Shown here piece by piece: positions 25,002 through 64,000 of a DNA stretch of 64,000 nt; the stretch's first letter is position 1; every line of letters begins with the position of its first letter. Under the pieces are notes generated by a model, which saw nothing but the letters and a program-made list of their open reading frames with translations, did not search any database and had not been told where the DNA came from. The position numbers and the translations under genes were made by a program. The stretch lies in contig CBDFIQ010000001.1 of assembly GCA_965248195.1 (NCBI GenBank), positions 384,001-448,000 of the forward strand, in the 5' to 3' direction. Source of the DNA: Longimicrobiales bacterium. GTDB taxonomy: Bacteria; Gemmatimonadota; Gemmatimonadetes; Longimicrobiales; Gaopeijiaceae.

Positions 25002-25066
25002 CCGGTGTTACGTCCGGCGCTCTTCGCGCTGGGGCTGCCGTTGGTGTTGCTCTAGACTGACGAGCT

Positions 25067-25102
25067 TCTGCTTGCGCCTACCGGCCCACTCTCGGATGTT
25101 GA
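25067..25102 (+). repeat. Repeat A copy 1 (36-bp promoter-like core), preceded by gene X 3' fragment at 25021-25058
   Basis: TCTGCTTGCGCCTACCGGCCCACTCTCGGATGTTGA; also at 54110, 59875 and 63883. Confidence 0.9.
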
Positions 25103-25177
25103 CGTCGGTTTGGGCCCGGAGAAGCAGGCCTCGCAAGGGGTGGCAAGACGTGCGACACACGCCAAGGGGACGACATC

Positions 25178-27358
25178 ATGAAGACACGGAAAGTGGGGCT
25201 TCTGGTCACCGCCACGTTGCTGACCGTCGCGGTCGCCTGGGTCACGCCCCTGCCTGGTCAGGCCGCCCAGAGCGACGAGATCACCGGTGTCGTGACGAGC
25301 GGCAATGGGCCGGAAGAAGGGGTATGGGTCATCGCCGAGACGGACGACCTGGCCACACGCTTCGTCAAGACCGTGGTCACCGGGGACGGCGGGCGCTTCC
25401 TGATTCCAGAGCTCCCCGAAGCCAATTACAGGGTCTGGGTCCGCGGGTACGGCCTCGTCGACTCGCCGAAGATCGACGCGACACCAGGGACCGACATCGA
25501 GCTCCAGGCGACCGTTGCGGCCAACGAGGCCGAAGCCGCCCAGGTGTATCCGGCCAACTACTGGTACTCACTGATCGAGCCGCCTGATGCGAGCGAATTC
25601 CCCGGGACCGGGCCGAGCGGCAATGGGATCGCCACGAACCTCCAGACGCAGGGCCAGTGGGTGGACATCCAGAAACAGGGTTGCATGCTGTGCCACCAGC
25701 TCGGCACTCGGGTCGTCCGCCAGATCGAGAACATCGACGAGTTCGACTCGACGCTTGCCGCCTGGGATTACCGGGTCCAGATGGGGCAGCGGGGCGGCCA
25801 GATGAGCAACGTCATGAGCCGATTCGGCCGACAGCGCGGGCTGCAGATGTTCGCCGACTGGAGCGACCGGATCGCGTCAGGCGCGCTTCCACCCAGGCCG
25901 CCCCGTCCGCAGGGCGTCGAGCGCAACGTCGTCACGACGATGTGGGAGTGGGGCACCGAGATCGACTACATCCACGACGAGATCGCGTCCGACAAGCGCG
26001 ACCCGACCGTGAACGCCAACGGACCGGTCTACGGCGTGAGCATCTCGAACGACGAGCTCGCCATTCTCGACCCGGTGACGCACGTGGCGACCAACCTCGA
26101 GGTCCCGCTACGGGCCGATCCCGCGACCGTGCGGCCGATGATTGCCGGATCGATGCAGGTGCCGTCGCGGTTCTATGGGGAGGAGCTGATCTGGAACGAC
26201 CCGGCCAACCCGCACAACCCCATGATGGATCAGAAAGGGCGGGTCTGGATGACGTCGGCGATCCGAGGTCGTGCGAACCCCGAGTGGTGCCAGGAAGGAT
26301 CGGACAACAAGTACGCGAGGTACTACCCAATGGCGAACAGTGGGCGGTCCGCGGTCTACTACGACCCGTCGACGGAGAAGTTCGTCATGATCGACACCTG
26401 CTTCGGCACGCACCACCTGCAGTTTGCCGAGGACGATGACAACACGCTCTTCTTCAGCGGTGGCGGCCAGGTCGTCGGGTGGATCAACACCGACGTCTAC
26501 GACGAGACGGGCGACGAGCAGTTCTCGCAGGGCTGGTGTCCTACCGTCATCGACACCAACGGCGACGGCAGGATCACGAAGCCATGGAACGAGCCTCAGA
26601 GTGGGAACATCGAGAACTTCGACCCAACCAAGGACACACGCGTGGGGGCGGGCAGCTATGGCCTCGTGGCCGACCCCGAGGTGGGCACGGCGGTCTGGCT
26701 CTCCTCGACGCGGTACCCGGGCAGGGTCGTGCGCTTGGACATCGGCGACAACCCGCCGGGGACCTGCATCACCGAGATGTACGAGGTGCCGTCGGTGCTC
26801 GACGCGAGCGTGCCAGAGGACGAGACCGGCTTCGGCCCGCACGGCATCGACATCGACCGCGACGGCGTCGTCTGGACGGCGCTCTCGGGCAGCAGCCACT
26901 TCGCCTCGTTCGACCGGAAGAAGTGCGACGCGAACGGACCGGAGATCCTCGACGGGCGCCACTGCGTCGAGGGATGGACGCTCTATCCGACACCGGGCCC
27001 GAACATCCGGAACACCGATCCGCCGCTGCGGGCGGACTACCACTACTACAACTGGGTGGACCAGCACAATACGTTGGGTCTGGGCAACAACATCCCGATC
27101 GCCAACGGGTCGAACTCCGATGCGTTACTGGCGCTCATCCCGGACACGGGCGAGTGGGTTGTCCTGCGCGTGCCGTATCCACAGGGCTTCTTCAGCCGCG
27201 GGCTCGACGGTCGTATCGACGACCCGGACGGCGGGTGGAAGGGTCGCGGCGTGTGGGCGACGTACGGCGCGGCGGTCACGTGGCACATCGAGGGCGGCAG
27301 GGGGGTCAAGCCCGGGATGATCAAGTTCCAGGTTCGCCCCGACCCGCTAGCCAACTAG
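25178..27358 (+). CDS. Secreted protein with carboxypeptidase-regulatory-like N-domain, one CxxCH heme motif and beta-propeller region
   Basis: Signal peptide; 'GVWVIAET', 'WVRGYGLVDS', 'CMLCH', 'RVPYPQGFFSRGLDGRIDD'. Confidence 0.8.
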   Translation: MKTRKVGLLVTATLLTVAVAWVTPLPGQAAQSDEITGVVTSGNGPEEGVWVIAETDDLATRFVKTVVTGDGGRFLIPELPEANYRVWVRGYGLVDSPKIDATPGTDIELQATVAANEAEAAQVYPANYWYSLIEPPDASEFPGTGPSGNGIATNLQTQGQWVDIQKQGCMLCHQLGTRVVRQIENIDEFDSTLAAWDYRVQMGQRGGQMSNVMSRFGRQRGLQMFADWSDRIASGALPPRPPRPQGVERNVVTTMWEWGTEIDYIHDEIASDKRDPTVNANGPVYGVSISNDELAILDPVTHVATNLEVPLRADPATVRPMIAGSMQVPSRFYGEELIWNDPANPHNPMMDQKGRVWMTSAIRGRANPEWCQEGSDNKYARYYPMANSGRSAVYYDPSTEKFVMIDTCFGTHHLQFAEDDDNTLFFSGGGQVVGWINTDVYDETGDEQFSQGWCPTVIDTNGDGRITKPWNEPQSGNIENFDPTKDTRVGAGSYGLVADPEVGTAVWLSSTRYPGRVVRLDIGDNPPGTCITEMYEVPSVLDASVPEDETGFGPHGIDIDRDGVVWTALSGSSHFASFDRKKCDANGPEILDGRHCVEGWTLYPTPGPNIRNTDPPLRADYHYYNWVDQHNTLGLGNNIPIANGSNSDALLALIPDTGEWVVLRVPYPQGFFSRGLDGRIDDPDGGWKGRGVWATYGAAVTWHIEGGRGVKPGMIKFQVRPDPLAN

Positions 27359-27416
27359 CCCGCCGTGACCAGTCTGGCTACGGACATCGCCTTCTTGAAA
27401 ACGGGAGCGCTCTATC

Positions 27417-28619
27417 ATGCCTAGCATCAGAGTTTCCAGATCCCTGTGGGCGTTCGGTCTCCTCGCTTTGGCCGGCTGTAGTGGGGTCGAACCAGCGGTG
27501 TGGCAGGAGGCGTTCCCCACCTTCACGAAGCACACGATCGCCGAGTTGGACGGGGGATCCTACGCGGTTGTCTTTGACGTCGATGGTGACGGGATGCAAG
27601 ACGTTGTAGCGTTTCCCGGGGGCAGAGCCGAACTGATGTGGTTCAAGAACCCGACCTGGGAAAAATTCAACATCACAACAGGGACCGAACGGTTCATCAA
27701 CATGGCCCCGTATGATGTCGATGGGGACGGCGATGTGGACCTCGCCATCGCCAGCGAGTTCGCCCTAGGGGACTCCAACAACGGCGGATTGATTCATTGG
27801 GTCGAGTCTCCCGACGACCCGACCACGAACCAAGAATGGGCGCTCCACTCCATAGATGCCGTCCCCGCGTCGCACAGGATCAGATGGGGAGACATAGATG
27901 GCGATGGGAGGAAGGAGCTCCTGAACCTCCCGATTATCGGGATCGGGGTCACCGGCCCCGAGTACGTGGGTGCGTCGCAGTTCAAGGCTTATCACATTCC
28001 CGATGACCCCACGGGTGCGTGGGAGCAGCAGGTGCTAGACGACTCCCGCCTGGAGGTGGCGCACGGCATCAGCGTCGTGGATTGGGACGGCGATCGGGCT
28101 GAGGATATCCTGACGGCCAGCAACGCCGGCGTCTTCCTATTCCAACCGGCGCTGGGAATTCAACCCCGGCACATCGGGGCCGGCCTTGACGCGCCGCGTC
28201 CGAATCGAGGGTCGAGCGAGGTCAGCCTCGGCACCTTGGGCGGCGACCGCTTCTTCGCCACGATCGAGCCGTGGCACGGCACCGACGCCGTTGTCTACAC
28301 GGCGGGCGACTCGGAGGAAGGCCTCTGGCTCCGCGAGGTCATCGGGACCGAGTTCGAGGGTGGACACGCGTTGATCGCCGTAGATCTGAACGACGACGGA
28401 TATGACGAGATCGTCGCGGGAGGCCGAGGCGGAGATTGGGCCCTGATGATCTACCGGTATCTACCGAGCTCCGACTCCTGGGAGAAAATTCCGCTGGATA
28501 TAGGCGGCGTGGCGGTTTCGGGTCTCTACATCAGCGACATCAATGGAGATGGTGCACTCGATATCATTGCCATCGGGGGAGCCACCGACAACGTGGTCTT
28601 TTACGAGAACTCGCGATGA
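27417..28619 (+). CDS. FG-GAP/VCBS repeat lipoprotein
   Basis: Lipobox 'LAGC'; repeated 'D.DGDG..D' motifs. Confidence 0.88.
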   Translation: MPSIRVSRSLWAFGLLALAGCSGVEPAVWQEAFPTFTKHTIAELDGGSYAVVFDVDGDGMQDVVAFPGGRAELMWFKNPTWEKFNITTGTERFINMAPYDVDGDGDVDLAIASEFALGDSNNGGLIHWVESPDDPTTNQEWALHSIDAVPASHRIRWGDIDGDGRKELLNLPIIGIGVTGPEYVGASQFKAYHIPDDPTGAWEQQVLDDSRLEVAHGISVVDWDGDRAEDILTASNAGVFLFQPALGIQPRHIGAGLDAPRPNRGSSEVSLGTLGGDRFFATIEPWHGTDAVVYTAGDSEEGLWLREVIGTEFEGGHALIAVDLNDDGYDEIVAGGRGGDWALMIYRYLPSSDSWEKIPLDIGGVAVSGLYISDINGDGALDIIAIGGATDNVVFYENSR

Positions 28620-28717
28620 GCCCCCTAGGCTAGGGAATCGCCCCCTCCGTCGTCAGCCGGATCCTGTAGAGATCGGTGTGGGACCTCCGCAGCCAGCGCC
28701 GTACCTGAGTATATCCC

Positions 28718-31213: not shown

Positions 31214-31336
31214 ATGAAACGCCTACGCCAACTGATCCATGAGATACACCGCCGCAGTCTGTGGCGGGTTGCTCCATTGTCTCAGCGGTACGTCGAGATC
31301 GCGGCTGAGTACGGCGTGGAGTGCCCTCCTACCTGA
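31214..31336 (+). pseudogene. 5' fragment of a membrane-anchored protein gene (MKRLRQLIHEIHRRSLW...)
   Basis: Recognisable N-terminal motif that is lost after about 19 codons. Confidence 0.45.
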
Positions 31337-32405
31337 CCCGTACGTACTTCTGCAGGTTCCGCGGGACGGGCTCACCGCCGTACATGTTCCCCTCGCGATC
31401 CACCGCGACGAACTCTGCCCCGTTTCCGAGCACGACCGCAGGGTCTCCCCACGGGTAGACGATGAAGTCCGTCACCCAGCCCGTCTCGGCTGATCCGATC
31501 CGGATCCCCATCTCCCAGCCCGGATTCTGCACGTTGTCGGACTCCGAGTCGGCCACAAAGATCTGCCCGTTCGTGTCGAACGCGATTCCGCTCGGCCGCC
31601 CGAACTGCGTCCACGTGGCCAGGTGCGTCCCTTCCTGATCGAAGATCTGGACTCGGTTGTTGCTCCGGTCCCCGACGAAGATCCGTCCCCTGGAGTCCAT
31701 CTCGATGGCGTGCAGAGCACGGAATTCCCCGGGTGCGTATCCGGTCTGGCCCCACGACATGATGAACCGACCGTCGCTCGTGAACTTCATGACGCGGTTG
31801 TTTCCGTCGTTGTTGTGGCCGTCCGCGATGAAGACGTTGCCGTTGGGTGCCGCGACCACGTCGGACGGGGAGTCGAAGCTGTTCCGATCGCTGCCGGCCA
31901 TGCCCGGTGTGCCGAGGCGCAGCAGCACGTCACCCGTGGGGCTGAACTTGTAGACCAGGTGCCCCCGCTGGTCACCGTCCGGGATGTTGTCCGAGCCCAC
32001 GGCGTCGGTTACCCAAACGTTGCCATCACGGTCGACATCGATGCCGTGTGGCCAGATGAACAACCCGCTGCCGAAGCTCTCCACGACCTTCCCGTCGAGG
32101 TCGAACTTGACTATCGGATCAAGGTCGGAATCCACGCACTCGTTGCCGAACCGGCTCGGTGTCACATCGAATCCGCGGGCGTCGCAACGTATCACCGCCC
32201 ACAGGTGATCTCCGTCCGGGTCCATCGTGACCTTGCCGACCGCGCCCATCCGTCTTCCGTCAGGCAGCTGGGCCCAGCCGTCCACCAGGCGGAAGGGGCT
32301 GGGGCCCGAGGTCTGCGCTGTCGCCTCCGCGGGAACCATGAGTGCCAGCGCCGCGACGGCGCACATCCACGGGACGAGACTCGACTTCCGGCTCCGGGTC
32401 GACAT
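31329..32405 (-). CDS. NHL-repeat protein (peptidyl-alpha-hydroxyglycine lyase-like)
   Basis: Signal peptide; 'WPHGIDVD.DGNVWVTD', 'GRIFVGDRSNNRVQIFDQEG'; GGAGG RBS. Confidence 0.88.
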   Translation of the reverse strand: MSTRSRKSSLVPWMCAVAALALMVPAEATAQTSGPSPFRLVDGWAQLPDGRRMGAVGKVTMDPDGDHLWAVIRCDARGFDVTPSRFGNECVDSDLDPIVKFDLDGKVVESFGSGLFIWPHGIDVDRDGNVWVTDAVGSDNIPDGDQRGHLVYKFSPTGDVLLRLGTPGMAGSDRNSFDSPSDVVAAPNGNVFIADGHNNDGNNRVMKFTSDGRFIMSWGQTGYAPGEFRALHAIEMDSRGRIFVGDRSNNRVQIFDQEGTHLATWTQFGRPSGIAFDTNGQIFVADSESDNVQNPGWEMGIRIGSAETGWVTDFIVYPWGDPAVVLGNGAEFVAVDREGNMYGGEPVPRNLQKYVRVR

Positions 32406-32582
32406 GATCGTACCTCCTCTGGACAGGCTCGAGTGTGGGACGGCAACCGTACGCGGGAGTCTCGAGGCGGTCAAGGCTCTGGATGGGGCTGTGGTCAGGG
32501 TACTCAAGAGGTCGCGATGGCCTGCCGGAGTCTCGGCGGATATCCTAAAACAGAATCCCCTGGATCGCTCGGAGGAAGACGA

Positions 32583-33800
32583 ATGAGGCAAGGACCTGAA
32601 AGGCACCGGAGCACCGGATTGAACCGTCGCGAGTTTCTCGGCGTTGGGGCGCTTCCACTGGCGGCTGGATTGGCGGCCAAGGATTTCGGTGCCAAGAGCA
32701 TCGGCACGAAGCACGAGACGAAGAGGAAGCAGTCTGCACAGGCGATTGTTCGCGTCGGCCTCGTGGGCGCGGGCGGTATCGTGCAGAGGGCCCAGCTTCC
32801 GAACTTTCGACAGATCCCGGGATGCGAGGTCGTTGCCGTGGCGAATCGCAGCTTGGCTTCCAGTCAGAGAGTTACTGAGGCGTTCAACATTCCGACGGCT
32901 TATGCCAACTGGAAGGAATTGCTGGACGACGAGAGCATTGACGCCATCATGATCGGAACCCCGCCCTACATGCATCACATTCTGACCTTGGAGGGGCTCG
33001 AGAACGGGAAACACGTGCTGTGCCAGTCTCGCATGGCCATGAACGCACAAGAGGCCCGAGACATGCTGGAGGCGGCGCGGCGCCACCCGAATTTGGTCTG
33101 CCAGCTGGTCGTGGGCCGGCGCCAAGCCGCTTTGGCACGACTGATCGAAGATGGATTCCTCGGTGAGCTGCTCTCCGCCGATATCCGCAGGCTGGGATCC
33201 GACGCCTCGCTCGGTGCTTCTCCAGACAGACGACGCGGCTTCGTCGACTTCGGAGCGGACTTGCACTGGCGCGTAGACCCCGACCTCAACGGGTTCAATA
33301 TCCCGTTGGGCCTGGGTGCTGCCTATGAAAGCATGAGTCGGTTGTTGGGGCGGGCGACACGGGTCATGGCGATGACCAAGGTGCACGCGCCGCATCGACG
33401 CGCTGCGGACGGGCAGATGGTTGCCAAGGGCGGAGTGGACCACGTGGACATTCTCTACGAGGTCGTCAACGGGGCACAGGTTCACCTGAGGGTGAGCTCG
33501 ACAACGGCACTAGCGGGCGGAAATCAGACCTGGCTCTTCGGCAGCGAGGGAACCATCCACATTGGCGGCGGCCGAATCCTCGGTGGACGCCGCGGCGACT
33601 CCGAGCTCCGTGAGATTCCCGACTCCCCGCAGGAACCGAGCGTTCGGCGCGTGGGGGTGGAAGAGCGGTTCGTCAACACGATTCGGGGAACCGCCGAGAA
33701 CACCACGGAATCCCTTGAAATAGGTGTCGATTACATGGAGTTCTCGGAGGCCGTGCATCGCAGCGGGCAGACCGGTCGGGCTGTGAATCTACCGTTGTGA
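32583..33800 (+). CDS. Gfo/Idh/MocA oxidoreductase with Tat signal
   Basis: 'NRREFLG'; 'VGLVGAGG', 'IGTPPYMH', 'GKHVLCQSRMA'. Confidence 0.9.
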   Translation: MRQGPERHRSTGLNRREFLGVGALPLAAGLAAKDFGAKSIGTKHETKRKQSAQAIVRVGLVGAGGIVQRAQLPNFRQIPGCEVVAVANRSLASSQRVTEAFNIPTAYANWKELLDDESIDAIMIGTPPYMHHILTLEGLENGKHVLCQSRMAMNAQEARDMLEAARRHPNLVCQLVVGRRQAALARLIEDGFLGELLSADIRRLGSDASLGASPDRRRGFVDFGADLHWRVDPDLNGFNIPLGLGAAYESMSRLLGRATRVMAMTKVHAPHRRAADGQMVAKGGVDHVDILYEVVNGAQVHLRVSSTTALAGGNQTWLFGSEGTIHIGGGRILGGRRGDSELREIPDSPQEPSVRRVGVEERFVNTIRGTAENTTESLEIGVDYMEFSEAVHRSGQTGRAVNLPL

Positions 33801-34976: not shown

Positions 34977-35008
34977 ACGCCCGATCCCATCACTCGCCTG
35001 AACGCAGC
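34977..35008 (+). repeat. Degenerate Ser/Thr kinase start fragment (TPDPITRLNAA)
   Basis: Matches the starts at 54172 and 63954, with ACG in place of ATG. Confidence 0.7.
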
Positions 35009-35025
35009 ACATAAGGAGTCCCCTC

Positions 35026-36024: not shown

Positions 36025-36235
36025 AGGCGGACGGACGCTAGCCTGACGGGCCGGAAGGCCCGCGTGGACTGCGTGTGTTCGATATGGGCAGCGGGGGGGT
36101 TGTCGGCGAACTGTGCGACGAGTTCGAGGAGGCGCTTCGGGGGCGGTACGGGTTGTCGGTTTGAAACGCGAGATCCACCGCCGTAAGGGCCCGTGAACAG
36201 ATGAGAGGGACGCCCGACCAACCCGTGAACCGGAG

Positions 36236-53963: not shown

Positions 53964-54109
53964 GATCGGCGTTCTCCTTACTCATTGTCGAGTCAGTGTC
54001 AAACGCTGAAAAACGGGCTGAAGTTAGCTACCGGTAGGATTTATTATCAAGGACGGTGTCAACAAAGACCGAATACACTTAGACGACGATTCTGGACGTC
54101 TGAGACGAT

Positions 54110-54145
54110 TCTGCTTGCGCCTACCGCCCCACTCTCGGATGTTGA
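54110..54145 (+). repeat. Repeat A copy 2
   Basis: 35/36 identical to copy 1. Confidence 0.9.
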
Positions 54146-54171
54146 GCGCAGCCTGAACTCGGAGTGCGCCA

Positions 54172-54321
54172 ATGTCCGAACCCGTCACCCGCCTGAACGC
54201 AGCCCTAGAGGGCCGCTACGCCATCGAGCGTGAGTTGGGCGAAGGGGTCATCGGCGAGGGAAGACACCCGATCAGATTGCGAACTGGAGTGCGTCCAACA
54301 GACAGGGAGCCAAAACTATGA
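54172..54321 (+). pseudogene. 5' fragment of a Ser/Thr protein kinase gene (49-aa ORF)
   Basis: MSEPVTRLNAALEGRYAIERELGEG breaks in the Gly-rich loop; stop overlaps the next ATG. Confidence 0.8.
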
Positions 54322-55289
54322 AAACTAGCACCGGGCAACCGCTCTCACGACGGGCTGCTCTACGTAGCATGGGGGTCGGGATCGCCCTCATTACGAGCGT
54401 CGCAGCTGGCGGATGTGCATCGCAAATAGACGATCCGGCGCCACGGATCATTGTCTCAGGAGCCTCCGGTCAGATCGGTGGCCGGGTAGTGGAGGAGCTG
54501 CTCGCTCGCGGAGTTCGACCCGCAGACCTCATCCTGGTGAGCCGAACGCCCGAGCGACTCGAACGATACGCAGAACTCGGGGCCAGCACCCGGTTTGGCG
54601 ACTTCCTCCAACCCGAATCCCTGGAGACGGCCTACGAGGGCGGTGACCGGATGCTCCTGATCAGCCTCAACAGCAGCAACCCCGATCCACGAGTACCGGC
54701 GCAGCGTGTCGAGCTTCAGCAGACCGCCATCGACGCGGCCATCGAGGCCGGGGTAGAGCACATCGTCTATACCTCAATCGTGGACGCTGACAACAGCGTG
54801 TCCCCGATTGCGGTATGGCACCGAGCGACGGAGGCAGACCTGCGGGAGAGCGGGGTCACTTGGACGGCGCTCAGGAATCAGTGGTATGCAGACGGACTCG
54901 TGACCCAGGCCGCTCGCATGGTTGAGGACCGTCGCGTGGTGGTGCTCCCGGACGATCCTGGGACCGCGTTCGTGACCCGCGAGGACTGTGCTGTTGCGGC
55001 AGCCGTTGCGCTCATGACGCCTGGCCACGAAAACCGAGTTTATGAGATCACTGGTCCGGCACTGGTCCGAATGCGCGACATCGCCTCGATCGCCAGCGAG
55101 ATCAGTGGCATCGAAATCGAGGTGATCGAGGCGGGGCCAGAGGACGAGGTTCGGGCACCTCGGCCTTCTGGAACCACCCTGACAACTCACTTCAGGGACA
55201 TCACTGGAGAGCCTGGCACCACAGCCCGAGACTTGTTGGAGGCGAACCGAGATGTGCTTCTGGAGGCCCGTGGGGGTGAGAGCCGGTGA
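54318..55289 (+). CDS. NmrA-like NAD(P)H-binding protein, Tat lipoprotein-like signal
   Basis: 'SRRAALR...AGGC'; 'VSGASGQIG', 'AGVEHIVYTS', 'H.ATE'. Confidence 0.88.
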   Translation: MKTSTGQPLSRRAALRSMGVGIALITSVAAGGCASQIDDPAPRIIVSGASGQIGGRVVEELLARGVRPADLILVSRTPERLERYAELGASTRFGDFLQPESLETAYEGGDRMLLISLNSSNPDPRVPAQRVELQQTAIDAAIEAGVEHIVYTSIVDADNSVSPIAVWHRATEADLRESGVTWTALRNQWYADGLVTQAARMVEDRRVVVLPDDPGTAFVTREDCAVAAAVALMTPGHENRVYEITGPALVRMRDIASIASEISGIEIEVIEAGPEDEVRAPRPSGTTLTTHFRDITGEPGTTARDLLEANRDVLLEARGGESR

Positions 55290-55424
55290 AGTTGGAGCAC
55301 CGCTTGAGTTCACCTCGGGTTCGAGCTGGGCGGGGAAAGGACGCCGAGGGACTGCCGCCGCAGTTCAGCGAGATCCAATGGCTGGAAGTCGCCGATGCTC
55401 CCGATCGAATTGTGGAGGGGTTCA

Positions 55425-55451
55425 CGTCTTCGTGGAAGGCGTGGTGATCGT
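55425..55451 (+). repeat. Repeat B, partial copy (27 bp)
   Basis: CGTCTTCGTGGAAGGCGTGGTGATCGT, identical to the core of the other copies. Confidence 0.85.
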
Positions 55452-55546
55452 GCGAGCTGACCCTGGCTGACGACCTCAAGCACGAGCGCAGTTCAGGGAG
55501 CCACTTTTTCTCTAAACTACGACAAGAAAATGACGGAGGTGGTGTC

Positions 55547-56539
55547 ATGTCACGATTGATCTTGTCCCTGGCTTTGTCGCTGGCGCCTCTCAGCATGAAC
55601 GCTCTCAGCGCCCAGACCTGTGACCCAGATGGTACCGTGAAGTTCGTGTGCGGTACCACCAACCCGGAAGACCTTTTCCTCGTTCCGGGTACCCCCTGGG
55701 TGATCGCTTCTGGACGATACTCCGATTCGGAAGGCCCGATCTACGCGGTCGACGCTCGTGATCACAGCGCCCGGGAAATCTTTCCCGCGGGCAGATTGCC
55801 ACCGCAGCACGAGAGGGACACCTATCGAGCCTGCCCTGGGCCGAACACCGTGTTTCAACCACACGGACTGACCCTGCGGGAAGGCAGCGGCAGCGTGCAT
55901 ACGCTATACGTGGTTGGCCATGGCGCGCGCGAAGCCATCGAGGTCTTTGAACTGGATGCCAGTGGCGCCCTTCCCACTATGAAATGGATCGGTTGTATCC
56001 CTGCGCCGGAAGGCACCCGGCGCATCAACTCCATTACGGCCTTGCCCGGCGGCTATCTCGGAGCCACCAATTTCGACACCACCGGCGGAGAACTCTGGGA
56101 ATGGCACCCCACGACTGGCTGGATCGAAGTGCCGGGCAGCCAGATGCGCGGTCCTAATGGCCTGGTTTCCTCTGATGACGGGCGATGGTTTTACATCGGC
56201 GGCTGGAGTGACCAGGCACTGGTGCGACTGTCGCGTGGCCAAACCCCGGTGCGAGTCGATCCGATCCTTGTTGGCTTCAACGTCGACAACGTGCGCTGGG
56301 GACCCGATGGCAAGGTGATCGTCGCCGGTCACGTGACTCGTTGTGAAGGGTCCGACCCCTGTGAACTGGCTGCCGCCCGCGTCGCCGAGGTCGATCCGAA
56401 CACGTTTGCTGTCCGGCAGTTGGTCGACTACAAGGGCAATGATTTTTTCAAGCTTGGAACCGTGGCGATCGACGTAAGTGACGAGATCTGGATTGGTGGC
56501 ATCAACGGCAGCTATGGAATCGCCCGCTTTCCACGGTAA
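55547..56539 (+). CDS. Six-bladed beta-propeller, paraoxonase/SMP-30-like
   Basis: Signal peptide; 'NPEDL', 'FQPHGL', 'GPNGL', 'VDNVRW'. Confidence 0.8.
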   Translation: MSRLILSLALSLAPLSMNALSAQTCDPDGTVKFVCGTTNPEDLFLVPGTPWVIASGRYSDSEGPIYAVDARDHSAREIFPAGRLPPQHERDTYRACPGPNTVFQPHGLTLREGSGSVHTLYVVGHGAREAIEVFELDASGALPTMKWIGCIPAPEGTRRINSITALPGGYLGATNFDTTGGELWEWHPTTGWIEVPGSQMRGPNGLVSSDDGRWFYIGGWSDQALVRLSRGQTPVRVDPILVGFNVDNVRWGPDGKVIVAGHVTRCEGSDPCELAAARVAEVDPNTFAVRQLVDYKGNDFFKLGTVAIDVSDEIWIGGINGSYGIARFPR

Positions 56540-56552
56540 GCGGGTCGAGTCC

Positions 56553-56594
56553 GATCCCCTGGCTTCGCGTCTTCGTGGAAGGCGTGGTGATCGT
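56553..56594 (+). repeat. Repeat B (42 bp, encodes IPWLRVFVEGVVIV)
   Basis: Identical at 57841-57882 and 62437-62478. Confidence 0.92.
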
Positions 56595-56719
56595 TGGTTC
56601 GATTCTGATGGCGTTCGGGATCTGATCGTCACGCTGGGGCTACCGGGGGTGTTGCTGAAGTGGATCCGATGTCGTCTGGGGTGGTGCCGTCCCCGTGATT
56701 TTCCGCGTATGTTGCGGGC

Positions 56720-57238
56720 ATGACCAATAACAGGGTCTACATACTGCTTACGCTGCTCCTCGCCGCGTGCTCGACGAGCACCCCCGTGGAGGTTGGGTCA
56801 ACCGCGCTCCTCACGACCAACCCCGCAGCCGGAACTGCGGGCGTTGATGTCAAGGCTCAGATCGAGGTGCGGTTCGATTCCCCGATCGCGTCTGGAGCCG
56901 GACACCCCATAGCCCTCCAGGTCGGAGACTGCCCCGGACCGGTCGTAGCGGGTACGTGGTCGAGGACCGCTGACGGCATGGGGCTGAGGTTCACGTCGAC
57001 GCAACCCCTCGATCAGTCCACTCGGTACACCATCCACGTGGGTGGTGGCCTGACAGATGCCGACGGGGCCATCATCAACCTCGACCTCAACGGCCTCGCA
57101 CTCGGTGGAACGTGGGTGACGCTCGACATGGTTATGGGCATGACCGGCATGGGCATGGGCCAGTCACACAGTGGGCCGGAGTGGCTCTACCTGAACGGGA
57201 TGTACGGGCTCGCTTTCGCTTTCAACACGGGACCGTAG
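56720..57238 (+). CDS. Ig-like (Big_5-type) domain lipoprotein with Met-rich tail
   Basis: Lipobox 'LAAC'; 'IEVRFDSPI', 'PLDQSTRYTIHV'. Confidence 0.75.
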   Translation: MTNNRVYILLTLLLAACSTSTPVEVGSTALLTTNPAAGTAGVDVKAQIEVRFDSPIASGAGHPIALQVGDCPGPVVAGTWSRTADGMGLRFTSTQPLDQSTRYTIHVGGGLTDADGAIINLDLNGLALGGTWVTLDMVMGMTGMGMGQSHSGPEWLYLNGMYGLAFAFNTGP

Positions 57239-57318
57239 CGGAAACCGACGGCGCTCCTTTCTCGCTCGACGCGCCGACTGGTTAGGGAACCGTCTCATCT
57301 GAGAAAAGAGGGATTGAA

Positions 57319-57813
57319 ATGAGCGTTACTGATGAGCTGTTGAGGAACAACGACACCTACGCCGAAGCGTTCGACAAGGGCGAGCTGCCTATGCCGCCGT
57401 CCCGTCAGGTTGCGGTGGTGGCCTGCATGGACGCCCGGCTCGATGTCTATCGGATCCTTGGACTCGAGCTCGGGGAGGCCCATGTGATTCGGAACGCTGG
57501 CGGGGTGATCACTGATGACGCGATCCGGTCGCTCGTCATCTCTCAACGCCTGCTCGCGACCCGGGAGATCATCCTGATCCATCACACGGACTGCGGCATG
57601 CTCACCTTCCGGGATGACGAAGTCAAAGCCGCGATCACCGAGGATGTGGGCGTGAGACCTCCGTTCGCTTTAGAGGCATTCCCCGACGCGCGGGAGGACG
57701 TGCGGCAGTCGCTCAGACGTGTGAGATCGAACCCCTTTCTCCCCCACAGCGAGGCGGTACGCGGCTTCGTCTTCGACGTGAAGACCGGTAAGCTGCGAGA
57801 GGTGACTGACTGA
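57319..57813 (+). CDS. Beta-carbonic anhydrase (clade D-like)
   Basis: 'ACMDAR', 'RNAGG', 'HHTDCG'. Confidence 0.93.
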   Translation: MSVTDELLRNNDTYAEAFDKGELPMPPSRQVAVVACMDARLDVYRILGLELGEAHVIRNAGGVITDDAIRSLVISQRLLATREIILIHHTDCGMLTFRDDEVKAAITEDVGVRPPFALEAFPDAREDVRQSLRRVRSNPFLPHSEAVRGFVFDVKTGKLREVTD

Positions 57814-57840
57814 AGGAGCGGGTGGGCAATTGACTCGCCA

Positions 57841-57882
57841 GATCCCCTGGCTTCGCGTCTTCGTGGAAGGCGTGGTGATCGT
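57841..57882 (+). repeat. Repeat B, preceded by a kinase-end remnant (ERVGN*, 57816-57833)
   Basis: Identical 42 bp; TTG start overlaps the remnant stop as at 62426. Confidence 0.92.
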
Positions 57883-57962
57883 CGGCTCTATCCTGCCGAA
57901 GAGCATGTAGTATGCCATTGACCTCTCGGACGTCGGGGACACTGACCGGGTGAGCTTAAGTC

Positions 57963-59543
57963 ATGCATAAAGAGCAAGATCCGAAGCGATTGACTGGGGG
58001 AAAGAAGGAGCTGTTGTCGATTTTGGATCGATTCGAGTCAGCCATCGTTAGCATGAAAGGCCGTTCGATCACCACGTTTGCCCTGCTGAAGCGCCTGCGG
58101 CCCCTCCGCGCCCTCGTAGTATTCGCGGTGGCCTGTAGCGACACTGCGCAGATTACGCAACCCGAAGCCAGAGGGTCCTCACTGTTCAGCACTAGTCCAG
58201 CATCGAAAGCCAGCGGGGCTAGCTTCCGGTCGGTGAGCGCCAGCTCCTTGCACAGCTGCGCTGTGACGAAAGCGGGGGGCGCATACTGCTGGGGCCAGAA
58301 CGGCGATGGCCGTCTCGGGGACGGCACGAACACGGCCAGTAGCGTGCCGGTACCGGTCTCGGGCGGGCACAAATTCCTGTCGGTGAGTGCGGGCTCCTTG
58401 CACAGCTGCGCTGTGACGACAGCGGGGGACGCATACTGCTGGGGCTCTAACGCCGATGGCCGTCTCGGGGACGGCACGAACATGGACAGCAACGAGCCGG
58501 TGCAAGTCTTGGGGGGAAACACCTTCCGGTCGGTGAGCGTTGGCGGCTGGCATAGCTGCGGGGTGACCGCTGCCAGGGACGCCTACTGCTGGGGCTCTAA
58601 CAGCACCGGCGCGCTCGGGGACGGCACGTTCACGACCAGCAACAAGCCGGTAGCGGTATCGGGCGGGCGCAGCTTCCGATCCGTGAACACCGGCGTGCGC
58701 CACAGCTGCGGTGTGACGACCGCGCGGGTCGCCTACTGCTGGGGCTTAAACGGCAGTGGTCGGCTCGGGGACGGGACGGACACGTTCCCGGCCGAGAACG
58801 AGCCGGTGGCGGTCTCAGGCGAGTATACCTTCCAAACGGTGACCGCCGGCGGCGACCACAGCTGCGGGGTGACGACGGAGGAAGCCGCCTTTTGCTGGGG
58901 TGAGAACGAGGATTTCGGCCAGCTCGGGGACAACACGGAAACGAACAGCAGCGTGCCGGTACCGGTCTCGGGCGGGCACAAATTCCTGTCGGTGAGTGCG
59001 GGCTCCTTGCACAGCTGCGCTGTGACGACAGCGGGGGACGCATACTGCTGGGGCTCGGGCGGGGCTGGCCAACTCGGGGACGGCACGAACAATAGCAACG
59101 GCGAGCCGACGGCGGTCTTAGGCGAACTCACCTTCGAGTCGGTGAGCCCCGCTCTCGCCCACACGTGCGGGCTCACCACCGGCGGAGCGGCCTACTGTTG
59201 GGGCTGGAACGGCGATGGCCGTCTCGGGGACGGCACGAACACGAACAGCAATGTGCCGATCCTTGTCGAGCTCACACTCCCTACGCCCCAGCACGAGCTC
59301 GACCTCTTGATCGACGACGTACAGGCCCTGGTCGATGCTGGCGTCTTGCTGCCGTCAGCGCAGGCGAACGGGTTGTTCGCCAAACTCAATGCCGCTATCG
59401 ACGCTCTGGAAAAGGGTAACACTAGGGCTGCTATCCAGCTCCTTGGGGCGTTCATCCAAGAAGTTCACCAAATCCTCTCGCCACAGTACGGCCAGCCACT
59501 AATCGACACCGCGCAGAGCATCATTGACCAGTTGAGGCCGTGA
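57963..59543 (+). CDS. RCC1-repeat beta-propeller lipoprotein with helical C-terminal domain (start may be 58053)
   Basis: Seven 'H(S/T)C.....AYCWG....G.LGDGT'-type repeats; 'AVAC' lipobox. Confidence 0.92.
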   Translation: MHKEQDPKRLTGGKKELLSILDRFESAIVSMKGRSITTFALLKRLRPLRALVVFAVACSDTAQITQPEARGSSLFSTSPASKASGASFRSVSASSLHSCAVTKAGGAYCWGQNGDGRLGDGTNTASSVPVPVSGGHKFLSVSAGSLHSCAVTTAGDAYCWGSNADGRLGDGTNMDSNEPVQVLGGNTFRSVSVGGWHSCGVTAARDAYCWGSNSTGALGDGTFTTSNKPVAVSGGRSFRSVNTGVRHSCGVTTARVAYCWGLNGSGRLGDGTDTFPAENEPVAVSGEYTFQTVTAGGDHSCGVTTEEAAFCWGENEDFGQLGDNTETNSSVPVPVSGGHKFLSVSAGSLHSCAVTTAGDAYCWGSGGAGQLGDGTNNSNGEPTAVLGELTFESVSPALAHTCGLTTGGAAYCWGWNGDGRLGDGTNTNSNVPILVELTLPTPQHELDLLIDDVQALVDAGVLLPSAQANGLFAKLNAAIDALEKGNTRAAIQLLGAFIQEVHQILSPQYGQPLIDTAQSIIDQLRP

Positions 59544-59570
59544 GGGTTGCTGAGTCGACCTTCGACTCCT

Positions 59571-59601
59571 AGCCCCGAGCGTCCCAGCGGCGTTCGGGGC
59601 T
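59571..59601 (+). terminator. Hairpin terminator after the RCC1 gene
   Basis: AGCCCCGAGCGTC / GGCGTTCGGGGCT stem followed by a short T run. Confidence 0.55.
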
Positions 59602-59874
59602 TTCGCTTCGCTGGGCTCCGTGAGCGTGATCATCACATCCATGATCTTCGCGCTGGGGCTGCCGTCACTGTTGATCTAGACTCGAACATAAGCACCCCAT
59701 AGCGCCCCTCTAAGCCACGAAACCACTCCAGCCTAACCAGAAGAGCGTCACCGCCACTAGCGCGGATGCCCGAGTCACGTTCACCGATGGGCTCTTCATC
59801 GAGCCAAGCTAGGGCTCCTCGAATCGAGCGGATAGATCGGCTCTGCCGGCCCGAAGCACTCGGCCCGACAGGCC

Positions 59875-59910
59875 TCTGCTTGCGCCTACCGGCCCGCTCT
59901 CGGATGTTGA
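59875..59910 (+). repeat. Repeat A copy 3, with gene X 3' fragment at about 59601-59682
   Basis: Identical to copy 4. Confidence 0.9.
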
Positions 59911-60039
59911 CCTCGGTCTGATCCCGGAGTGCGCGAGTGACGGCCCACCCTAAACTCGCGCGTGCTTCGATCCGAGACCCCCAGCTGGTGAGGGGTGCAG
60001 GCACTATAAACAGTTATGAACAGCCACGGTTAGGAGTAA

Positions 60040-62247
60040 GTGATGAAACGAGAGAACCGACGACCGGGCTTGGTATGCATCACCTCGGCCGCTCTGGTCG
60101 TGTTCGCCGGTGTGTTCGTTCCGCGGTCCGCGGCTTTTGCTCAACAGGCCTCCTATACGGATCAGCAGGCGAATAGTGGGGCTTCAATTTATCAGGCGGC
60201 GTGCGGCGCCTGCCATCTCACTGATCTGCTGGGCGGCACCGCGCCCCAGCTCGCGGGAACCAACTTCCGTAACACTTGGGGGGGTCGGCGCGTCTCACAG
60301 GTGCTGCTGTACATACGCTCTTCCATGCCGCCCGGCGGTGAAGGGTCGCTGAGCGACGAGGAGTACTCCGCCATAACCGCGTACATCATGAGCCAGAACG
60401 GAGTCGACCCGGGCACGACTCCTTTGAGCTTCGCGTCGGAGGGGGGATTGGCGATGGCCGAGGGGGCCGTGCTGGCCGCCGGCGGCAACACACCCATTCC
60501 CGGTGTTGCGGGTTCGATCCCCTCGCCAGGGGGCAGAAACGCCGTTCCCCCATATGGCGGGCTGTCCGAGACTCCCACCGGAGTTACCCGGACGTTTAGA
60601 AGATTGGAAGGGTTCACGCCGGTTACCGACGCAGAGCTCAGAAACCCACCAGACGGCGAATGGCTCAGCCCGCGGGGAAACCTGGGCTCGTGGGGCTATA
60701 GCCCGCTGAGTCAGATCACCACCGAGAATGTCCATCGCCTCGAGCTCGCCTGGGTCTGGGGGATGGAGGATGGCACCCGGAGTCAGCCGGCGCCGTTGAT
60801 TCGAGACGGAGTCATGTTCCTGCCGAACTGGGGCAACACGATTCAGGCACTCGACGCTGCCACGGGAGATCTTCTCTGGGAGTACCGCCGAAATTTCCCC
60901 GAGGGCATGAGTCGCGGCCGCGGCCGGGTTCGGACCCTGGCGATTTGGGAGGACATGATCTACGTGTCCACCAACGATGCCCAAGTGATCGCTCTGGATG
61001 CCCGGACCGGTGTGCTTCGGTGGGAAGCCAAGCTCGCCGAGCCGAACCTGGGCTACGAGAACTCGAGCGGCCCGGTCATCGCCAACGGCAAGATCATCAA
61101 TGGCATCAACGGCTGTACCCGTTTGATCCCGGAGAGCTGCTTCATCACCGCGCACGATGCCCGGTTCGGGGATGAGCTCTGGCGCACTTTCACGATCGCG
61201 CGCCCAGGCGAGCCCGGCGGAGACACGTGGGGTGGACTTCCTTTTGAGCTGCGTGGCGGGGGCGACGTCTGGAATATCGGGAGCTACGACCCGGAGTTGG
61301 GGCTCGTGTACTTCGGCGCGTCCCAAATGAAGCCGCGGGCGCCGGTGAGTCGGGGGACCGTCCGGACCGAGGCGGATTCGATCCTATACAGCAGCTCGAC
61401 GCTGGCGTTAGATGAGAACACCGGACGTATCGTATGGTACCGGCAGTACGTTCCGGACGAGTCACTCGATATGGACGAGGCCATGGAGCAGGTGCTGATC
61501 GACATCGATGGCCAGCCAACGCTCTTTCAGATCGGAAAGCACGGCATCCTCTGGAAGCTGGACCGCCGCGACGGCCGGTTTCTTGGCCTGAAGGAGACGG
61601 TCTTTCAAAACATTCTGGAGCTGAACTATGAGACCGGTACGAGCACGTATCGGCCGGACATCCGCGATGCACAGGTCGGCGAGTGGGTTTCGGTCTGCCC
61701 CTCCACGGCCGGGGGAAAAAATTGGCATGCGACCAGCTACCACCCGGAATCCGGCCTGATGGTTATCCCGCTCAGCCAGACCTGCATGGAGAGCGTTGCC
61801 AGCGAGATCGAAATGGTGTTGGGGGGCGGAGGCACCGGGCAAAGTCGGATGTGGTCGGAAATGCCCGGAACGAATGGGAACCTCGGAAAGCTCGCCGCCT
61901 ACGATGTCAGGACACTGGAGGAGGTCTGGAGCGTGGAGCAGCGGGCTCCATTCCTGACCTCGATTCTCACTACCGCTGGGGGGCTCGCCTTCGCTGGCGA
62001 TTATGACCGACGGGTTCGGGCGTATGACGTCACGACCGGTGAAACGTTGTGGGAGAGCCGCTTGGGCACCGCGGTTCAGGGCTTTCCAACCACTTACGAG
62101 GTCGACGGGGTGCAGTACCTCGCCGTACCCACTGGCGTGATTGGAGGGAGCCCATGGCGGGTTTCGACCTTCCTCGCGCCCGAGATCCTGATTCCGCCTG
62201 GTAACAGGCACAACGCGATGTACGTGTTCCGGCTGGGAGAGCTATGA
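60040..62247 (+). CDS. Cytochrome c-PQQ alcohol dehydrogenase-like fusion
   Basis: N-terminal 'CGACH'; 'YSPLSQI', '[13 protein letters not shown]', '[10 protein letters not shown]', 'DGVQYLAV'. Confidence 0.92.
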
Positions 62248-62300
62248 CGTAGGGTTCCACGTGCTCGATCCCAACAACAAGTCTCGGCCTGGTACGGACC

Positions 62301-62429
62301 TGGGACATTCATCCCGACGGCTCGCGCTTCATCATGGTGGCTTCAGCCGGAGCCGGCGGAGGCGCCCTAACCGAGGTCTACCTGGTCACCAACTGGTTCG
62401 AGGAGCTTCGCGAGCGGATGGGAAATTGA
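62301..62429 (+). pseudogene. 3' fragment of a kinase/TolB-like propeller gene
   Basis: WDIHPDGSRFIMV...VYLVTNWFEELRERMGN*, the usual C-terminus of kinase-PD40 proteins. Confidence 0.7.
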
Positions 62430-62436
62430 AGGCTCA

Positions 62437-62478
62437 GATCCCCTGGCTTCGCGTCTTCGTGGAAGGCGTGGTGATCGT
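62437..62478 (+). repeat. Repeat B
   Basis: Identical 42 bp within MKAQIPWLRVFVEGVVIVG. Confidence 0.92.
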
Positions 62479-62561
62479 CGGCAAACTGAAGAACTAGCGG
62501 CCTCGCATTAGTCCCATCCAGCCACCGCACCGCCCAAGCATCACCCATAGCTTCACCGCGG

Positions 62562-63575
62562 CTAGTTCCCTCTCACCCAGTAGAGGCAGCCGGGCCCGGC
62601 GCCGTCGCCCATCGGGATCTCGTGGGTAACCTCGAGCGTATTCAGATCCACGACGGCCACCCGGTCCGCGGCCCGCAGCCCCAGATAGGCGTGTCTGCCG
62701 TCTGGGGCCACCAACAAAGCGCCGTCCCCCAGGTCGCCGGAGCCGAGGGACACTCGGGTGATCTCCGTGCGAGACGCCGCGTCCATGACGACGAGGGTTG
62801 CCGCCTCGCCGTCGATGATCAGTGCCCGACCGTCCGGCGTGAACTTAAGGCGATTCGCGTCTTCGAGGCCCAGGTCGAGCGTCTCGACGACGGCTCGGCT
62901 GGCGACATCGATGATTGACACTCCACCGTCGTTCCGGGTTGCGGTCCAGATTTCTCGGCCATCCGGTGACAGATCGATGCCTTCAGGCCGTTCACCCGGC
63001 ACCGGAATCACGGTTAGCCTCGACGCGGCGGGGCCTGCCGAGATGCGCTCGACCATGGTTACGGAATTCGAGCCAATGTTCGACATGAACATGGTGTCGG
63101 TGTCGCGGTCGAGGACGAGCAGGTGGGTGCCGTCCTGGCCAATCTCAAGCGTCCACTCGATCGCGTCGGTCGATGGATTGTAGCGCCCGATCGACTTGTA
63201 GCCTTCGATGGTGAAGTACACCTTGCCGTCGGCAAAGAGCACATCATGCGTCCGGCTGCCGGGGCCAGGGTCGACTCGCCGGACTTCCGTTTGCGCGGTC
63301 AGGTCAATGACTGAAATCCCGTCCACCATGCTGGCCACGAACGCCCACCGGCCGTCGGCGGATGCGGTGACCTCGTGCGGATCTCGGCCCGTCGGCACGC
63401 GTCCCAGCTCCGTCCCGCTGGCCGGATCGACAATCGCCAGCGCGCTGGCGTCTCGGAGCAACACGAGAAGTCGTCCGGATGTCGGTGACTGGGCGCTGAC
63501 CGCGGCATGCCCAAGGACCAGCGCGCCGAGCGCTACCAACGCGACCCGTCGGAGCACCGTGCTCACTGAGTGCAT
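62562..63575 (-). CDS. YncE/YVTN-type beta-propeller protein, secreted
   Basis: 'PTGRDPHEV..SADGR', 'PEGIDLSPDGREIW', 'RLKFTPDG'; GGAGG RBS. Confidence 0.88.
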   Translation of the reverse strand: MHSVSTVLRRVALVALGALVLGHAAVSAQSPTSGRLLVLLRDASALAIVDPASGTELGRVPTGRDPHEVTASADGRWAFVASMVDGISVIDLTAQTEVRRVDPGPGSRTHDVLFADGKVYFTIEGYKSIGRYNPSTDAIEWTLEIGQDGTHLLVLDRDTDTMFMSNIGSNSVTMVERISAGPAASRLTVIPVPGERPEGIDLSPDGREIWTATRNDGGVSIIDVASRAVVETLDLGLEDANRLKFTPDGRALIIDGEAATLVVMDAASRTEITRVSLGSGDLGDGALLVAPDGRHAYLGLRAADRVAVVDLNTLEVTHEIPMGDGAGPGCLYWVRGN

Positions 63576-63729
63576 CTGATACCTCCGTGTGTGCTGAGGT
63601 GGCTCTGTGGTGACGCCGACCACACGACTGCTGACAATACAGCCTACCACCGCATCCGGCCCGCGGGTCCAATGCAGTATGTGCGGGCCGCGCACTCTTC
63701 TGCGAAGAGGGTCCAGCGGATCCTCCTCT

Positions 63730-63877
63730 CCGCCTCCTCCTGCGCATGAACAACGGCATCGGCTTCCTGCTCCGCATCACCGACGTTGAGAAGCAGCCCT
63801 TCCGCTCGATGGGCTTCGTGAGCGTGATCATCACATCCGTGATCTTCGCGCTGGGACTCCCACTCGTGCTGCTCTAG
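63730..63877 (+). pseudogene. 3' fragment of a membrane protein gene (gene X)
   Basis: RLLLRMNNGIGFLLRITDVEKQPFRSMGFVSVIITSVIFALGLPLVLL*; shorter copies at 25021 and 59601. Confidence 0.6.
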
Positions 63878-63882
63878 ACTCC

Positions 63883-63918
63883 TCTGCTTGCGCCTACCGG
63901 CCCGCTCTCGGATGTTGA
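63883..63918 (+). repeat. Repeat A copy 4
   Basis: 36-bp core upstream of the kinase start. Confidence 0.9.
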
Positions 63919-63953
63919 ACGCGGTCTGATCCTCTGATACCGAGGACCGCACA

Positions 63954-64000
63954 ATGTCCGATCCCGTCACCCGTCTCAACGCAGCCCTCGAAGGCCGCTA
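63954..64000 (+). CDS. Start of a Ser/Thr protein kinase gene (runs off the window; may be intact or another fragment)
   Basis: GAGGA RBS; MSDPVTRLNAALEGRY, matching 54172. Confidence 0.7.
   Translation, partial: MSDPVTRLNAALEGR

Follow-up and report, generated by a model that had tools for sequence, protein, structure and literature searches.

Ends of an expanded kinase-gene Y unit frame unrelated, singly shuffled genes in flexible islands of a Longimicrobiales bacterium

The 64,000-nucleotide stretch of a Longimicrobiales bacterium analysed here (the window; contig CBDFIQ010000001.1, positions 384,001 to 448,000, which is C1:384001-448000 of the source genome G000) contains unrelated genes framed by recurring fragments of one locus. 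These fragments, or stubs, come from a Ser/Thr kinase-WD40 gene and its surroundings, including the start of a second gene, gene Y, and the genes that they frame (the cargo) occupy the slot of the kinase body in the correct polarity. We observed the anatomy and polarity of the stubs, their restriction to flexible islands, a gene-by-gene reshuffling of the cargo, recombined flanks of the gene Y stub (core B) and conservation of this core at the DNA level. We lean towards the explanation that the stubs are end pieces left over from an expanded kinase-gene Y paralog unit, framing unrelated genes that are shuffled singly within the islands; the joining would be mostly illegitimate, and the ends would be kept and multiplied as promoters and short homology patches.

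G000 (4.86 Mb, 2 contigs) was compared with 11 further genomes of its genus (12 genus genomes in all, including the complete genome G005), with 151 family genomes and with 81 sampled genera; G057 belongs to another genus. The pieces of the relatives, except contig C5 of G011, were picked for stub or cargo matches, and counts on them are therefore biased toward stubs. Gene calls behind the polarity, island, tRNA-site, promoter and junction counts come from a custom codon-usage caller, a non-standard tool, while cargo labels come from a Pfam search of the window proteins.

The unit runs from core A to the kinase start, and from the kinase end to the start of gene Y. Core A occupies nt −65 to −25 relative to the kinase start codon, the kinase (~900 aa) combines a Pkinase domain with PD40/WD40-like repeats, and core B comprises codons 1-16 of gene Y, a gene whose start overlaps the stop of the kinase. 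Among seven full-length kinases with B behind them, the start is best conserved (nucleotide identity 0.83), the end less so (0.67) and the body least (0.42-0.51). The two kinase pieces belong to the same gene, as the first-pass annotation of this DNA had supposed, since B directly follows 10 of the 21 full-length kinases in the pieces examined. Intact gene Y (~235 aa) is present in other genera; 49 of the 53 GTDB loci with an exact B core are stubs without it. Its function has a weak DUF6090 lead only (Pfam E 0.06; an Atlas cluster with 15% DUF6090), and the term ‘DUF6090’ gave no paper in our literature search. A third recurring piece, X, comes from a membrane gene, of which it represents the 3′ end; a paralog elsewhere in G000 encodes a membrane protein of 535 aa that carries a guanylate/adenylate cyclase domain. 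The query used found no intact X ortholog in the 151 family genomes, the longest matches being partial pieces or a paralog of 500-575 aa. The intact X-kinase-Y locus predicted earlier was not found, and a full-length kinase directly before an intact Y was seen twice, with frameshifts in each. Besides A, the kinase has at least three upstream types (A2, C and D). At one locus (L125, G004:C72), tandem units of B stub, D-type promoter and kinase start surround one full-length kinase, with an X end before the kinase.

Kinase fragments are anchored at the 5′ end: 28 of 40 kinase-domain matches begin in the first 30 nt, the others being 5 short internal pieces and 7 other kinases. In a control for fragment position, planted 60-nt pieces from three positions were recovered in 18/18, 17/18 and 18/18 cases. 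This anchoring rejects random decay of kinase paralogs as the origin of the repeats. Of 94 kinase starts, 64% have a σ70-like pattern, TTG-16/18-xAxxxT, upstream; the share is 5.5% in 5000 random 90-mers and 20% in 620 divergent gene heads. RNA runs include contigs that join a stub to the NmrA-like cargo gene, in small shares, and such contigs cannot show transcription. Elsewhere in G000, the first kinase codons are fused in frame to cargo open reading frames (ORFs) of 326-670 aa (C1:243173, 981369, 1100176 and 1406614; C2:3330360), which are candidate deletion-born chimeric genes.

The polarity of the stubs places the cargo where the kinase body would be, in agreement with the original proposal. 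The gene after a 5′ stub is in sense orientation in 143 of 173 cases and the gene before it in 98 of 173, against a background of 0.57-0.65. At B the asymmetry is reversed, with the previous gene in sense at 45/52 loci and the next at 32/52; these counts include B behind intact kinases, and the value is 28/34 without 8 such loci. In G000, a co-oriented 5′ stub or kinase start lies within 5 kb upstream of 12 of the 24 B loci (two of these 12 upstream pieces being one intact and one broken kinase), and one in opposite orientation at a single locus. Among the GTDB B loci, a 5′ piece is found upstream in 27/40 and downstream in 12/37. G057 carries an intermediate stage of this arrangement, in which the promoter and 12-14 kinase codons are fused to cargo, the cargo is fused to the kinase end, and an intact Y stands behind.

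Orthologous positions were compared at two tRNA sites, with one relative each. At the tRNA-Gly site, co-oriented A stubs carry different cargo in G000 and G006, as expected for different cargo between the same anchors; at the tRNA-Arg site the cargo also differs, but the stubs of G000 and G005 point in opposite directions. The suggestion that the array collects exported enzymes holds only in part, the enrichment being modest: by a crude heuristic, exported proteins make up 16/26 in the window, 31/76 in an island of G011 and 79/254 in the core.

Cargo order is not conserved between relatives, in keeping with the original proposal, which conserved order and content would have refuted. In four genus relatives, two control regions keep their collinearity in blocks of up to 16 kb at 81-89% identity. 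Window genes, by contrast, are common to sister species one at a time, at 91-98%, and have other neighbours and orientations there. A match in the relative pieces examined was found for 16 of 30 window genes, and where both members of a neighbouring pair occur in the same relative's pieces, adjacency is kept in 1 of 14 cases. The pair concerned, a beta-lactamase-like gene (−) and a GFO oxidoreductase gene (+) at 31329-33800, is kept in G006; in G005 the two lie 1.7 kb apart. In the unbiased stretch of G011, 13 chains of at least 8 kb average 84.2% identity and one of them reaches 90%, while 40 of 102 chains shorter than 4 kb do so. Single genes whose counterparts are scattered throughout G000 tile the G011 island at 260-375 kb. 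Among 117 shared blocks, 90 consist of one ORF, of which 47 end between −3 and +15 nt from the stop codon and 16 inside the gene. The same cargo also stands behind different kinase promoter types across species: the gene at 25178 follows A here and C in G005 and G006, and NmrA, which follows A in G000, keeps its kinase-stub tail in G006 and G011, where a C-type promoter precedes it.

G000 contains 31 copies of A, 24 of B and 34 kinase starts, 3 of them full-length; with wider profiles, the 5′ loci number 83 and stub loci of all kinds 113. The stubs are the largest intergenic repeat family of this genome after the ends of insertion sequences (ISs). The densest 20 kb (C1:438-458 kb) holds 11 stub loci, all on the + strand, and the next best holds 6. 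Same-orientation copies are thus clustered as anticipated, but the notion of a single hotspot has to be given up, as the pattern is genome-wide and multi-genus and the window is merely its densest part. Stubs are confined to flexible islands: in 1.26 Mb of G011, none of 31 stub loci lies inside a core block, and stubs occur at 0 of 255 core-chain junctions.

An X-A-kinase query matches all 11 other genus genomes. With up to 2 mismatches allowed, the 29-nt core of B is matched 17 times in G000 and is present in 22/151 family genomes and 12/81 genera, while the reversed core gave none in 151 genomes, so the repeats are not due to chance. Record titles name Gemmatimonadota or Longimicrobiales for 51 of the 53 GTDB loci with an exact core. 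The other two (L200 and L243) are short contigs titled Vicinamibacterales and Gammaproteobacteria, which reflects either cross-phylum transfer or mis-binning. A search of viral contigs, limited to exact matches, returned neither core A nor core B, and on this ground phages were ruled out as the carrier.

Within the window, all X-end, A, kinase-start, kinase-end and B copies of the first-pass annotation were recovered on the + strand by a repeat finder and direct reading. Its list was incomplete, lacking a fragment at 55462-55490 and a stub of another promoter type at 45231. Pfam supported its cargo labels NmrA, Big_5, Pro_CA, RCC1, cytochrome c-PQQ and YncE, but YncE proved to be on the − strand, and for the ‘PON-like’ gene returned a weak SGL match only.

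A cargo gene for glucose/sorbosone dehydrogenase (GSDH, Pfam; 23832-25001, +) stands before an X 3′ stub identified by repeat comparison (24976-25058, +; X end at 25021) and a promoter-like core A (25060-25122, +; A at 25067), for which we propose a −35 box TTGCGC and a −10 box GATGTT separated by 17 nt. Behind GSDH there is an X end with A in G011, an X end alone in G006 and nothing related in G005. Cargo of 726 aa follows (25178-27358, +). A kinase-start stub of 11 codons with a mutated start codon (34977-35009, +) precedes a cupin gene (35026-36024). A 37-nt piece at the cupin 3′ end (36003-36039) is found again at other places, among them in front of B at G000:C1:155662. By its appearance it is a PQQ-type gene's end, so that gene ends of other kinds are reused as well. 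The C-type kinase promoter stub at 45231-45297 (+) stands before an FAD oxidoreductase gene (45320-47422), and a shorter related piece lies at 50558-50584.

In the denser part of the array, an X-to-A intergenic piece, core A (54110) and kinase codons 1-25 (start at 54172) occupy 54062-54251 (+), followed by the NmrA-like NAD(P)-binding protein (54318-55289, +; Pfam), which is 97% identical in G006 and G011. Next come a core B eroded on both sides (55418-55451, +), an internal kinase fragment of codons ~33-42 (55462-55490, +) and an SGL/gluconolactonase-like beta-propeller gene (55547-56539, +; Pfam SGL E 0.003) that has different neighbours in G005 and G006. A core B (56553) within a longer Y stub of 24 codons (56550-56629, +) continues into an X-like piece to 56663. 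It precedes a two-gene cargo (56720-57813, +; Pfam), composed of a Big_5 lipoprotein-like gene (56720-57238) and a carbonic anhydrase gene (Pro_CA, 57319-57813). A kinase 3′ end whose stop overlaps the Y start, with core B at 57841 (57816-57896, +), separates this cargo from an RCC1-repeat gene (57963-59543, +; Pfam). The segment at 59601-59937 (+) contains an X 3′ stub (59601-59682), a mosaic intergenic piece and core A (59875) with its 5′ leader (59868-59937). The cytochrome c-PQQ dehydrogenase gene behind it (60040-62247, +; Pfam) is 97% identical in G011, where it has other neighbours. At 62301-62551 (+), a kinase 3′ end of ~43 codons (62301-62429), core B (62435-62482; B at 62437) and a recurrent ‘KLEN’ tail (62483-62551) precede the YncE-like beta-propeller gene (62562-63575, −; Pfam), present in two copies in G006 and one in G011. 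The last segment of the window (63746-64000, +) holds an X 3′ stub (~63746-63877), core A (63883) and a kinase start (63954) that stops after 38 codons. The array continues to ~69.9 kb in window-equivalent coordinates; this extension adds one kinase end with B and three kinase-start stubs, with unrelated genes behind each of the three. Stubs are present at 12 of 36 junctions in 22-72 kb and at 10 of 14 in 53-72 kb, and most gene junctions in 27-53 kb are without one.

The stubs themselves carry marks of recombination. B is conserved as DNA: across 54 B stubs, conservation by codon position is 0.96/0.96/0.95, compared with 0.91/0.91/0.71 in 12 intact Y genes. Stub identity is the same within and between genomes. 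The flanks of B include two left and two right types, and every one of their four combinations exists (4, 7, 5 and 5 among 92 distinct copies, the rest being unclassified, with one flank type a unique junction), which points to crossovers inside B. An edge of a shared block near a stub in G000 also lies near a stub in the relative in 8/30 cases, against 10/390 otherwise, though the edges are not independent.

In the mechanism that we favour, incoming DNA, probably supplied by natural transformation, would be joined by illegitimate recombination, and repeated breakage and selection would trim it to whole genes. In a second layer, the expanded kinase-Y unit would offer a promoter-bearing slot, and genes landing behind a kinase start would be expressed and kept. 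The conserved ends would give homology for a minority of crossovers, each success copying the ends again. Such events may combine RecA/DprA-type pairing at a stub with illegitimate joining of the other end, possibly by Ku/LigD, and tandem arrays could form via unequal crossover or circles between direct copies. A dedicated recombinase would be unnecessary. ComEC and DprA are encoded in 6/6 high-quality genus genomes, and Ku in 4/6, with a LigD-like neighbour (labelled by eye) in G000. Insertion of a single base by fill-in is a trait of Ku/LigD joining. At the junctions, 5 of 30 scored cases have exactly one unmatched base between the units and none has 0 or 1 shared base, in what are small numbers.

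Several observations weigh against this explanation. No stub is found in either genome at 380 of 420 shared-block edges; 40 edges lie near one in either genome and 8 in both. A G000 stub is present at 30/420 edges and at 15/87 and 15/124 (12-17%) island junctions, so that edges are not enriched in stubs. With some 90% of the edges free of stubs, the earlier view of the stubs as anchors that drive accretion finds no support. In five edge rows where the G000 cargo ends at B, the relative's copy ends at B in none. Of 41 junctions, 30 were scored, and 4 of these 30 have microhomology of 2-3 nt; the genomes compared are not the direct donors. The single-gene block sizes were measured in this lineage only. 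ComEC and DprA do not show competence, because they are also present in 10-11 of 14 control genomes. The 35-50 nt B cores are near the lower limit of RecA pairing, given as ~30 bp in the accessible part of PMC2884548. No circles or rearranged molecules of this strain were seen in a search confined to short-read contigs, and the joints that do appear in contigs reflect other loci of the stub family. Promoter function of the stubs is something we infer, because the TTG-16/18-xAxxxT pattern is enriched yet a generic E. coli-type σ70 scan does not call A as a promoter.

The strongest competitor, which we consider possible though rather less probable, is that the stubs are passive scars with promoter capture only. 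Island kinase paralogs would be hit by indels, selection would keep the promoter end, B would be a hitch-hiking right-hand scar spread by recent transfer, and neither would recombine beyond chance. The 380/420 edges without a stub and the lack of edge enrichment agree with this, as do the cases seen in which cargo and B do not travel together; promoter selection alone would explain the polarity of the 5′ stubs, and deletion-born fusions are described as general in bacteria in the accessible text of PMC12803068. B, however, is hard to accommodate, having no promoter role and yet being kept as a 30-50 nt core, exact in the 53 GTDB loci and found in 12/81 genera. Its third positions are conserved, also in the intact Y paralogs of G057, whose bodies differ. 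Moreover, all four combinations of B flanks exist, and the promoter-type swaps map to the shared kinase stub.

A bolder version of the explanation that we favour, offered tentatively and in our opinion doubtful, is that the kinase ends form a self-spreading, recombinase-free ‘plug standard’ across several marine Longimicrobiales genera. A gene between a kinase start and B would be provided with a promoter and with homology to landing sites that number in the dozens and lie in many species; anchored units would out-spread unanchored ones, and the anchors would multiply by drive while kinase and Y are discarded.

The first-pass annotation had considered a recombinase acting in trans. In an integron, each cassette is followed by attC, an imperfect hairpin with the consensus RYYYAAC...GTTRRRY, and clusters of attC sites lacking integron-integrases (CALINs) need attC but no IntI. 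An unlinked site-specific recombinase using A or B as attachment sites would fit the near-invariant cores, the tandem cargo-B-cargo-B arrays, the loss of similarity to Y at nt 45-48 in 24 of 46 B copies, and the 21 tyrosine-recombinase and 13 IS110 matches in G000; as in integrons, single-gene units form mostly co-oriented arrays that are reordered between genomes. We nevertheless consider this improbable, as no fixed crossover, junction motif or hairpin emerged. A single amplified B-KLEN junction and eroded forms of it account for part of the peak at nt 45-48. Stretches of 67-86 nt around A and B fold no better than shuffles (z −0.8 to +0.25), and a 9-pair stem in B reaches z −1.4 when folded as RNA, with 5 of 14 changes compatible with the stem (41% expected). 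The edges are variable, and among 555 of them no motif beyond stop-codon words was found; GATC, observed 27 times against 43 expected, was rejected as a breakpoint motif along with other words. Rfam gave no match in 22-64 kb, there is no terminator-like site at A or B, and most moved genes have no stub. An attC-like profile built from G000 has 33 matches genome-wide and none in the window. The IntI-like genes (C1:1061968 and 1112706) are more than 600 kb from the array and both cut by ISs, so that the array has neither IntI nor attC, and most of its units lack any site. The system is neither an integron nor a minimal mobile element. Clusters of attC-like sites lie at G000:C1:468000-506000 and 1081000-1105000, with an IS110-family element inserted within. 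This family, the only one examined, targets attC, and was on that account rejected as a source of targeting to the stubs. Near an IntI-like gene, 17 tRNA genes form a compact array (G000:C1:1071378-1073597).

Old rearrangements followed by recent inter-species gene conversion of coding regions, with the stubs homogenised likewise, would explain the edges at stop codons (47/90 within −3 to +15 nt) without trimming, as well as the equal stub identity within and between genomes. This is very unlikely, as core genes with more flanking homology stay at 82-89%, the cargo is patchy across species (16/30 window genes in the pieces examined), and the polarity and the origin of the reordering are left unexplained.

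Least credible are cassettes made from mRNA by reverse transcription, which single-gene units with tight ends and group II-type reverse transcriptase matches in 5/12 genus genomes might suggest but which conflict with stubs that include the −35 region, absent from a transcript, and with the lack of a reverse transcriptase match in G000 or the complete G005, and an assembly artefact, since contigs of the best-matching run and of runs from three further studies bridge the stub-to-cargo junctions at 54.2, 56.6, 57.9, 59.9 and 62.5 kb with few differences (none spanning a whole stub with both flanks) and the GSDH-X and YncE-X junctions are common to G006 and G011, which makes misassembly, raised as a caveat at the outset, unlikely.

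The array has mobile elements on either side. Positions 1-22400 of the window are an IS-interrupted prophage region with genes for an S49-capsid fusion (789-3386), a lambda-type portal, terminase gpA and Nu1, a DNA methylase, a DnaB-like helicase and an RNA ligase (18477-19289). Its integrase lies just beyond the window (G000:C1:358171-359421) and belongs to five related 445-aa integrases, four of which have a tRNA-Met call nearby. IS elements start 1.7 kb beyond the window end. One of 1377 nt (for example G000:C1:449653-451029), which we take to be IS256-like, has ~100 near-identical copies in G000, and G057, of another genus, carries copies 100% identical to them. A second IS, of 1567 nt, is likewise abundant in G000.

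We found no description of this arrangement in full-text searches, including the accessible part of a marine Gemmatimonadota survey (PMC11316326), with subscription papers and supplements beyond reach; the comparisons that follow likewise draw on the accessible parts of the papers cited. The promoter early stem-loop (PeSL) cassettes of T4-type phages (PMC2839356, PMC4122927) and phage ‘boundary sequences’ (PMC3233612) are similar in being repeated, promoter-bearing intergenic sequences in hypervariable regions, with module edges at gene edges, and have been proposed as homologous crossover points that swap and express unrelated genes. For phage mosaicism there is a long-standing debate between models based on boundary sequences and models based on illegitimate recombination with selection (PMC3233612), and it applies here too. 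The σ70-like promoter of PeSLs at hypervariable gene boundaries has its counterpart here as a sequence pattern; for their mini-circles between neighbouring copies, our data consist of short-read contigs only. In contrast to PeSLs, the stubs lie in a bacterial chromosome, are pieces of a coding paralog unit with two ends (5′ and 3′) and variable length, have no terminator stem-loop and no exact core match in viral contigs, and are common across species and genera.

In effector-immunity modules of the Vibrio cholerae type VI secretion system (T6SS) and the orphan modules of Rhs and contact-dependent inhibition (CDI) systems, a conserved gene stretch anchors DNA and the other end joins illegitimately (PMC5361080). 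As in these arrays, formed by homology-facilitated illegitimate recombination (HFIR), repeated events would build arrays and leave truncated gene pieces without an integrase, and the one conserved and one variable end of HFIR are seen here as 5′-anchored kinase stubs with spread 3′ ends. Those arrays, however, involve one functional class at a few fixed loci, whereas here unrelated enzymes and surface proteins occur at dozens of loci and the anchor gene is mostly lost. The minimal mobile elements of Neisseria (PMC3082526) also place different whole genes in a slot, exchanged without mobility genes, but do so between two intact conserved genes at one orthologous site; our stubs are multi-copy, truncated and absent from core blocks. 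The lpl two-gene unit (PMC2568036) likewise keeps the 3′ end of one gene and the 5′ end of the next together, but shuffles its own paralog halves via a central conserved region, whereas here the ends are conserved and foreign genes fill the middle. Many bacterial gene-gain hotspots have no explaining mobile genetic element (PMC5635113). They share fast gene turnover without a mobility gene of their own and are linked to transformation and homologous recombination, yet they recombine at flanking core genes, in contrast to the gene-by-gene exchange inside our islands, with internal repeated stubs.

This lineage shows phage-like single-gene mosaicism over hundreds of kb of chromosome, between species at ~84% identity. 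As both kinds of junction stand side by side and the markers can be counted (~110 stub loci per genome), the debate over how such mosaics are joined becomes testable in natural populations. For annotation the lesson is that, in Gemmatimonadota, many fusions to a kinase start and many short ‘kinase’ ORFs are scars. If the explanation that we favour holds, a family of regulatory genes is being reused here as landing patches and portable promoters.

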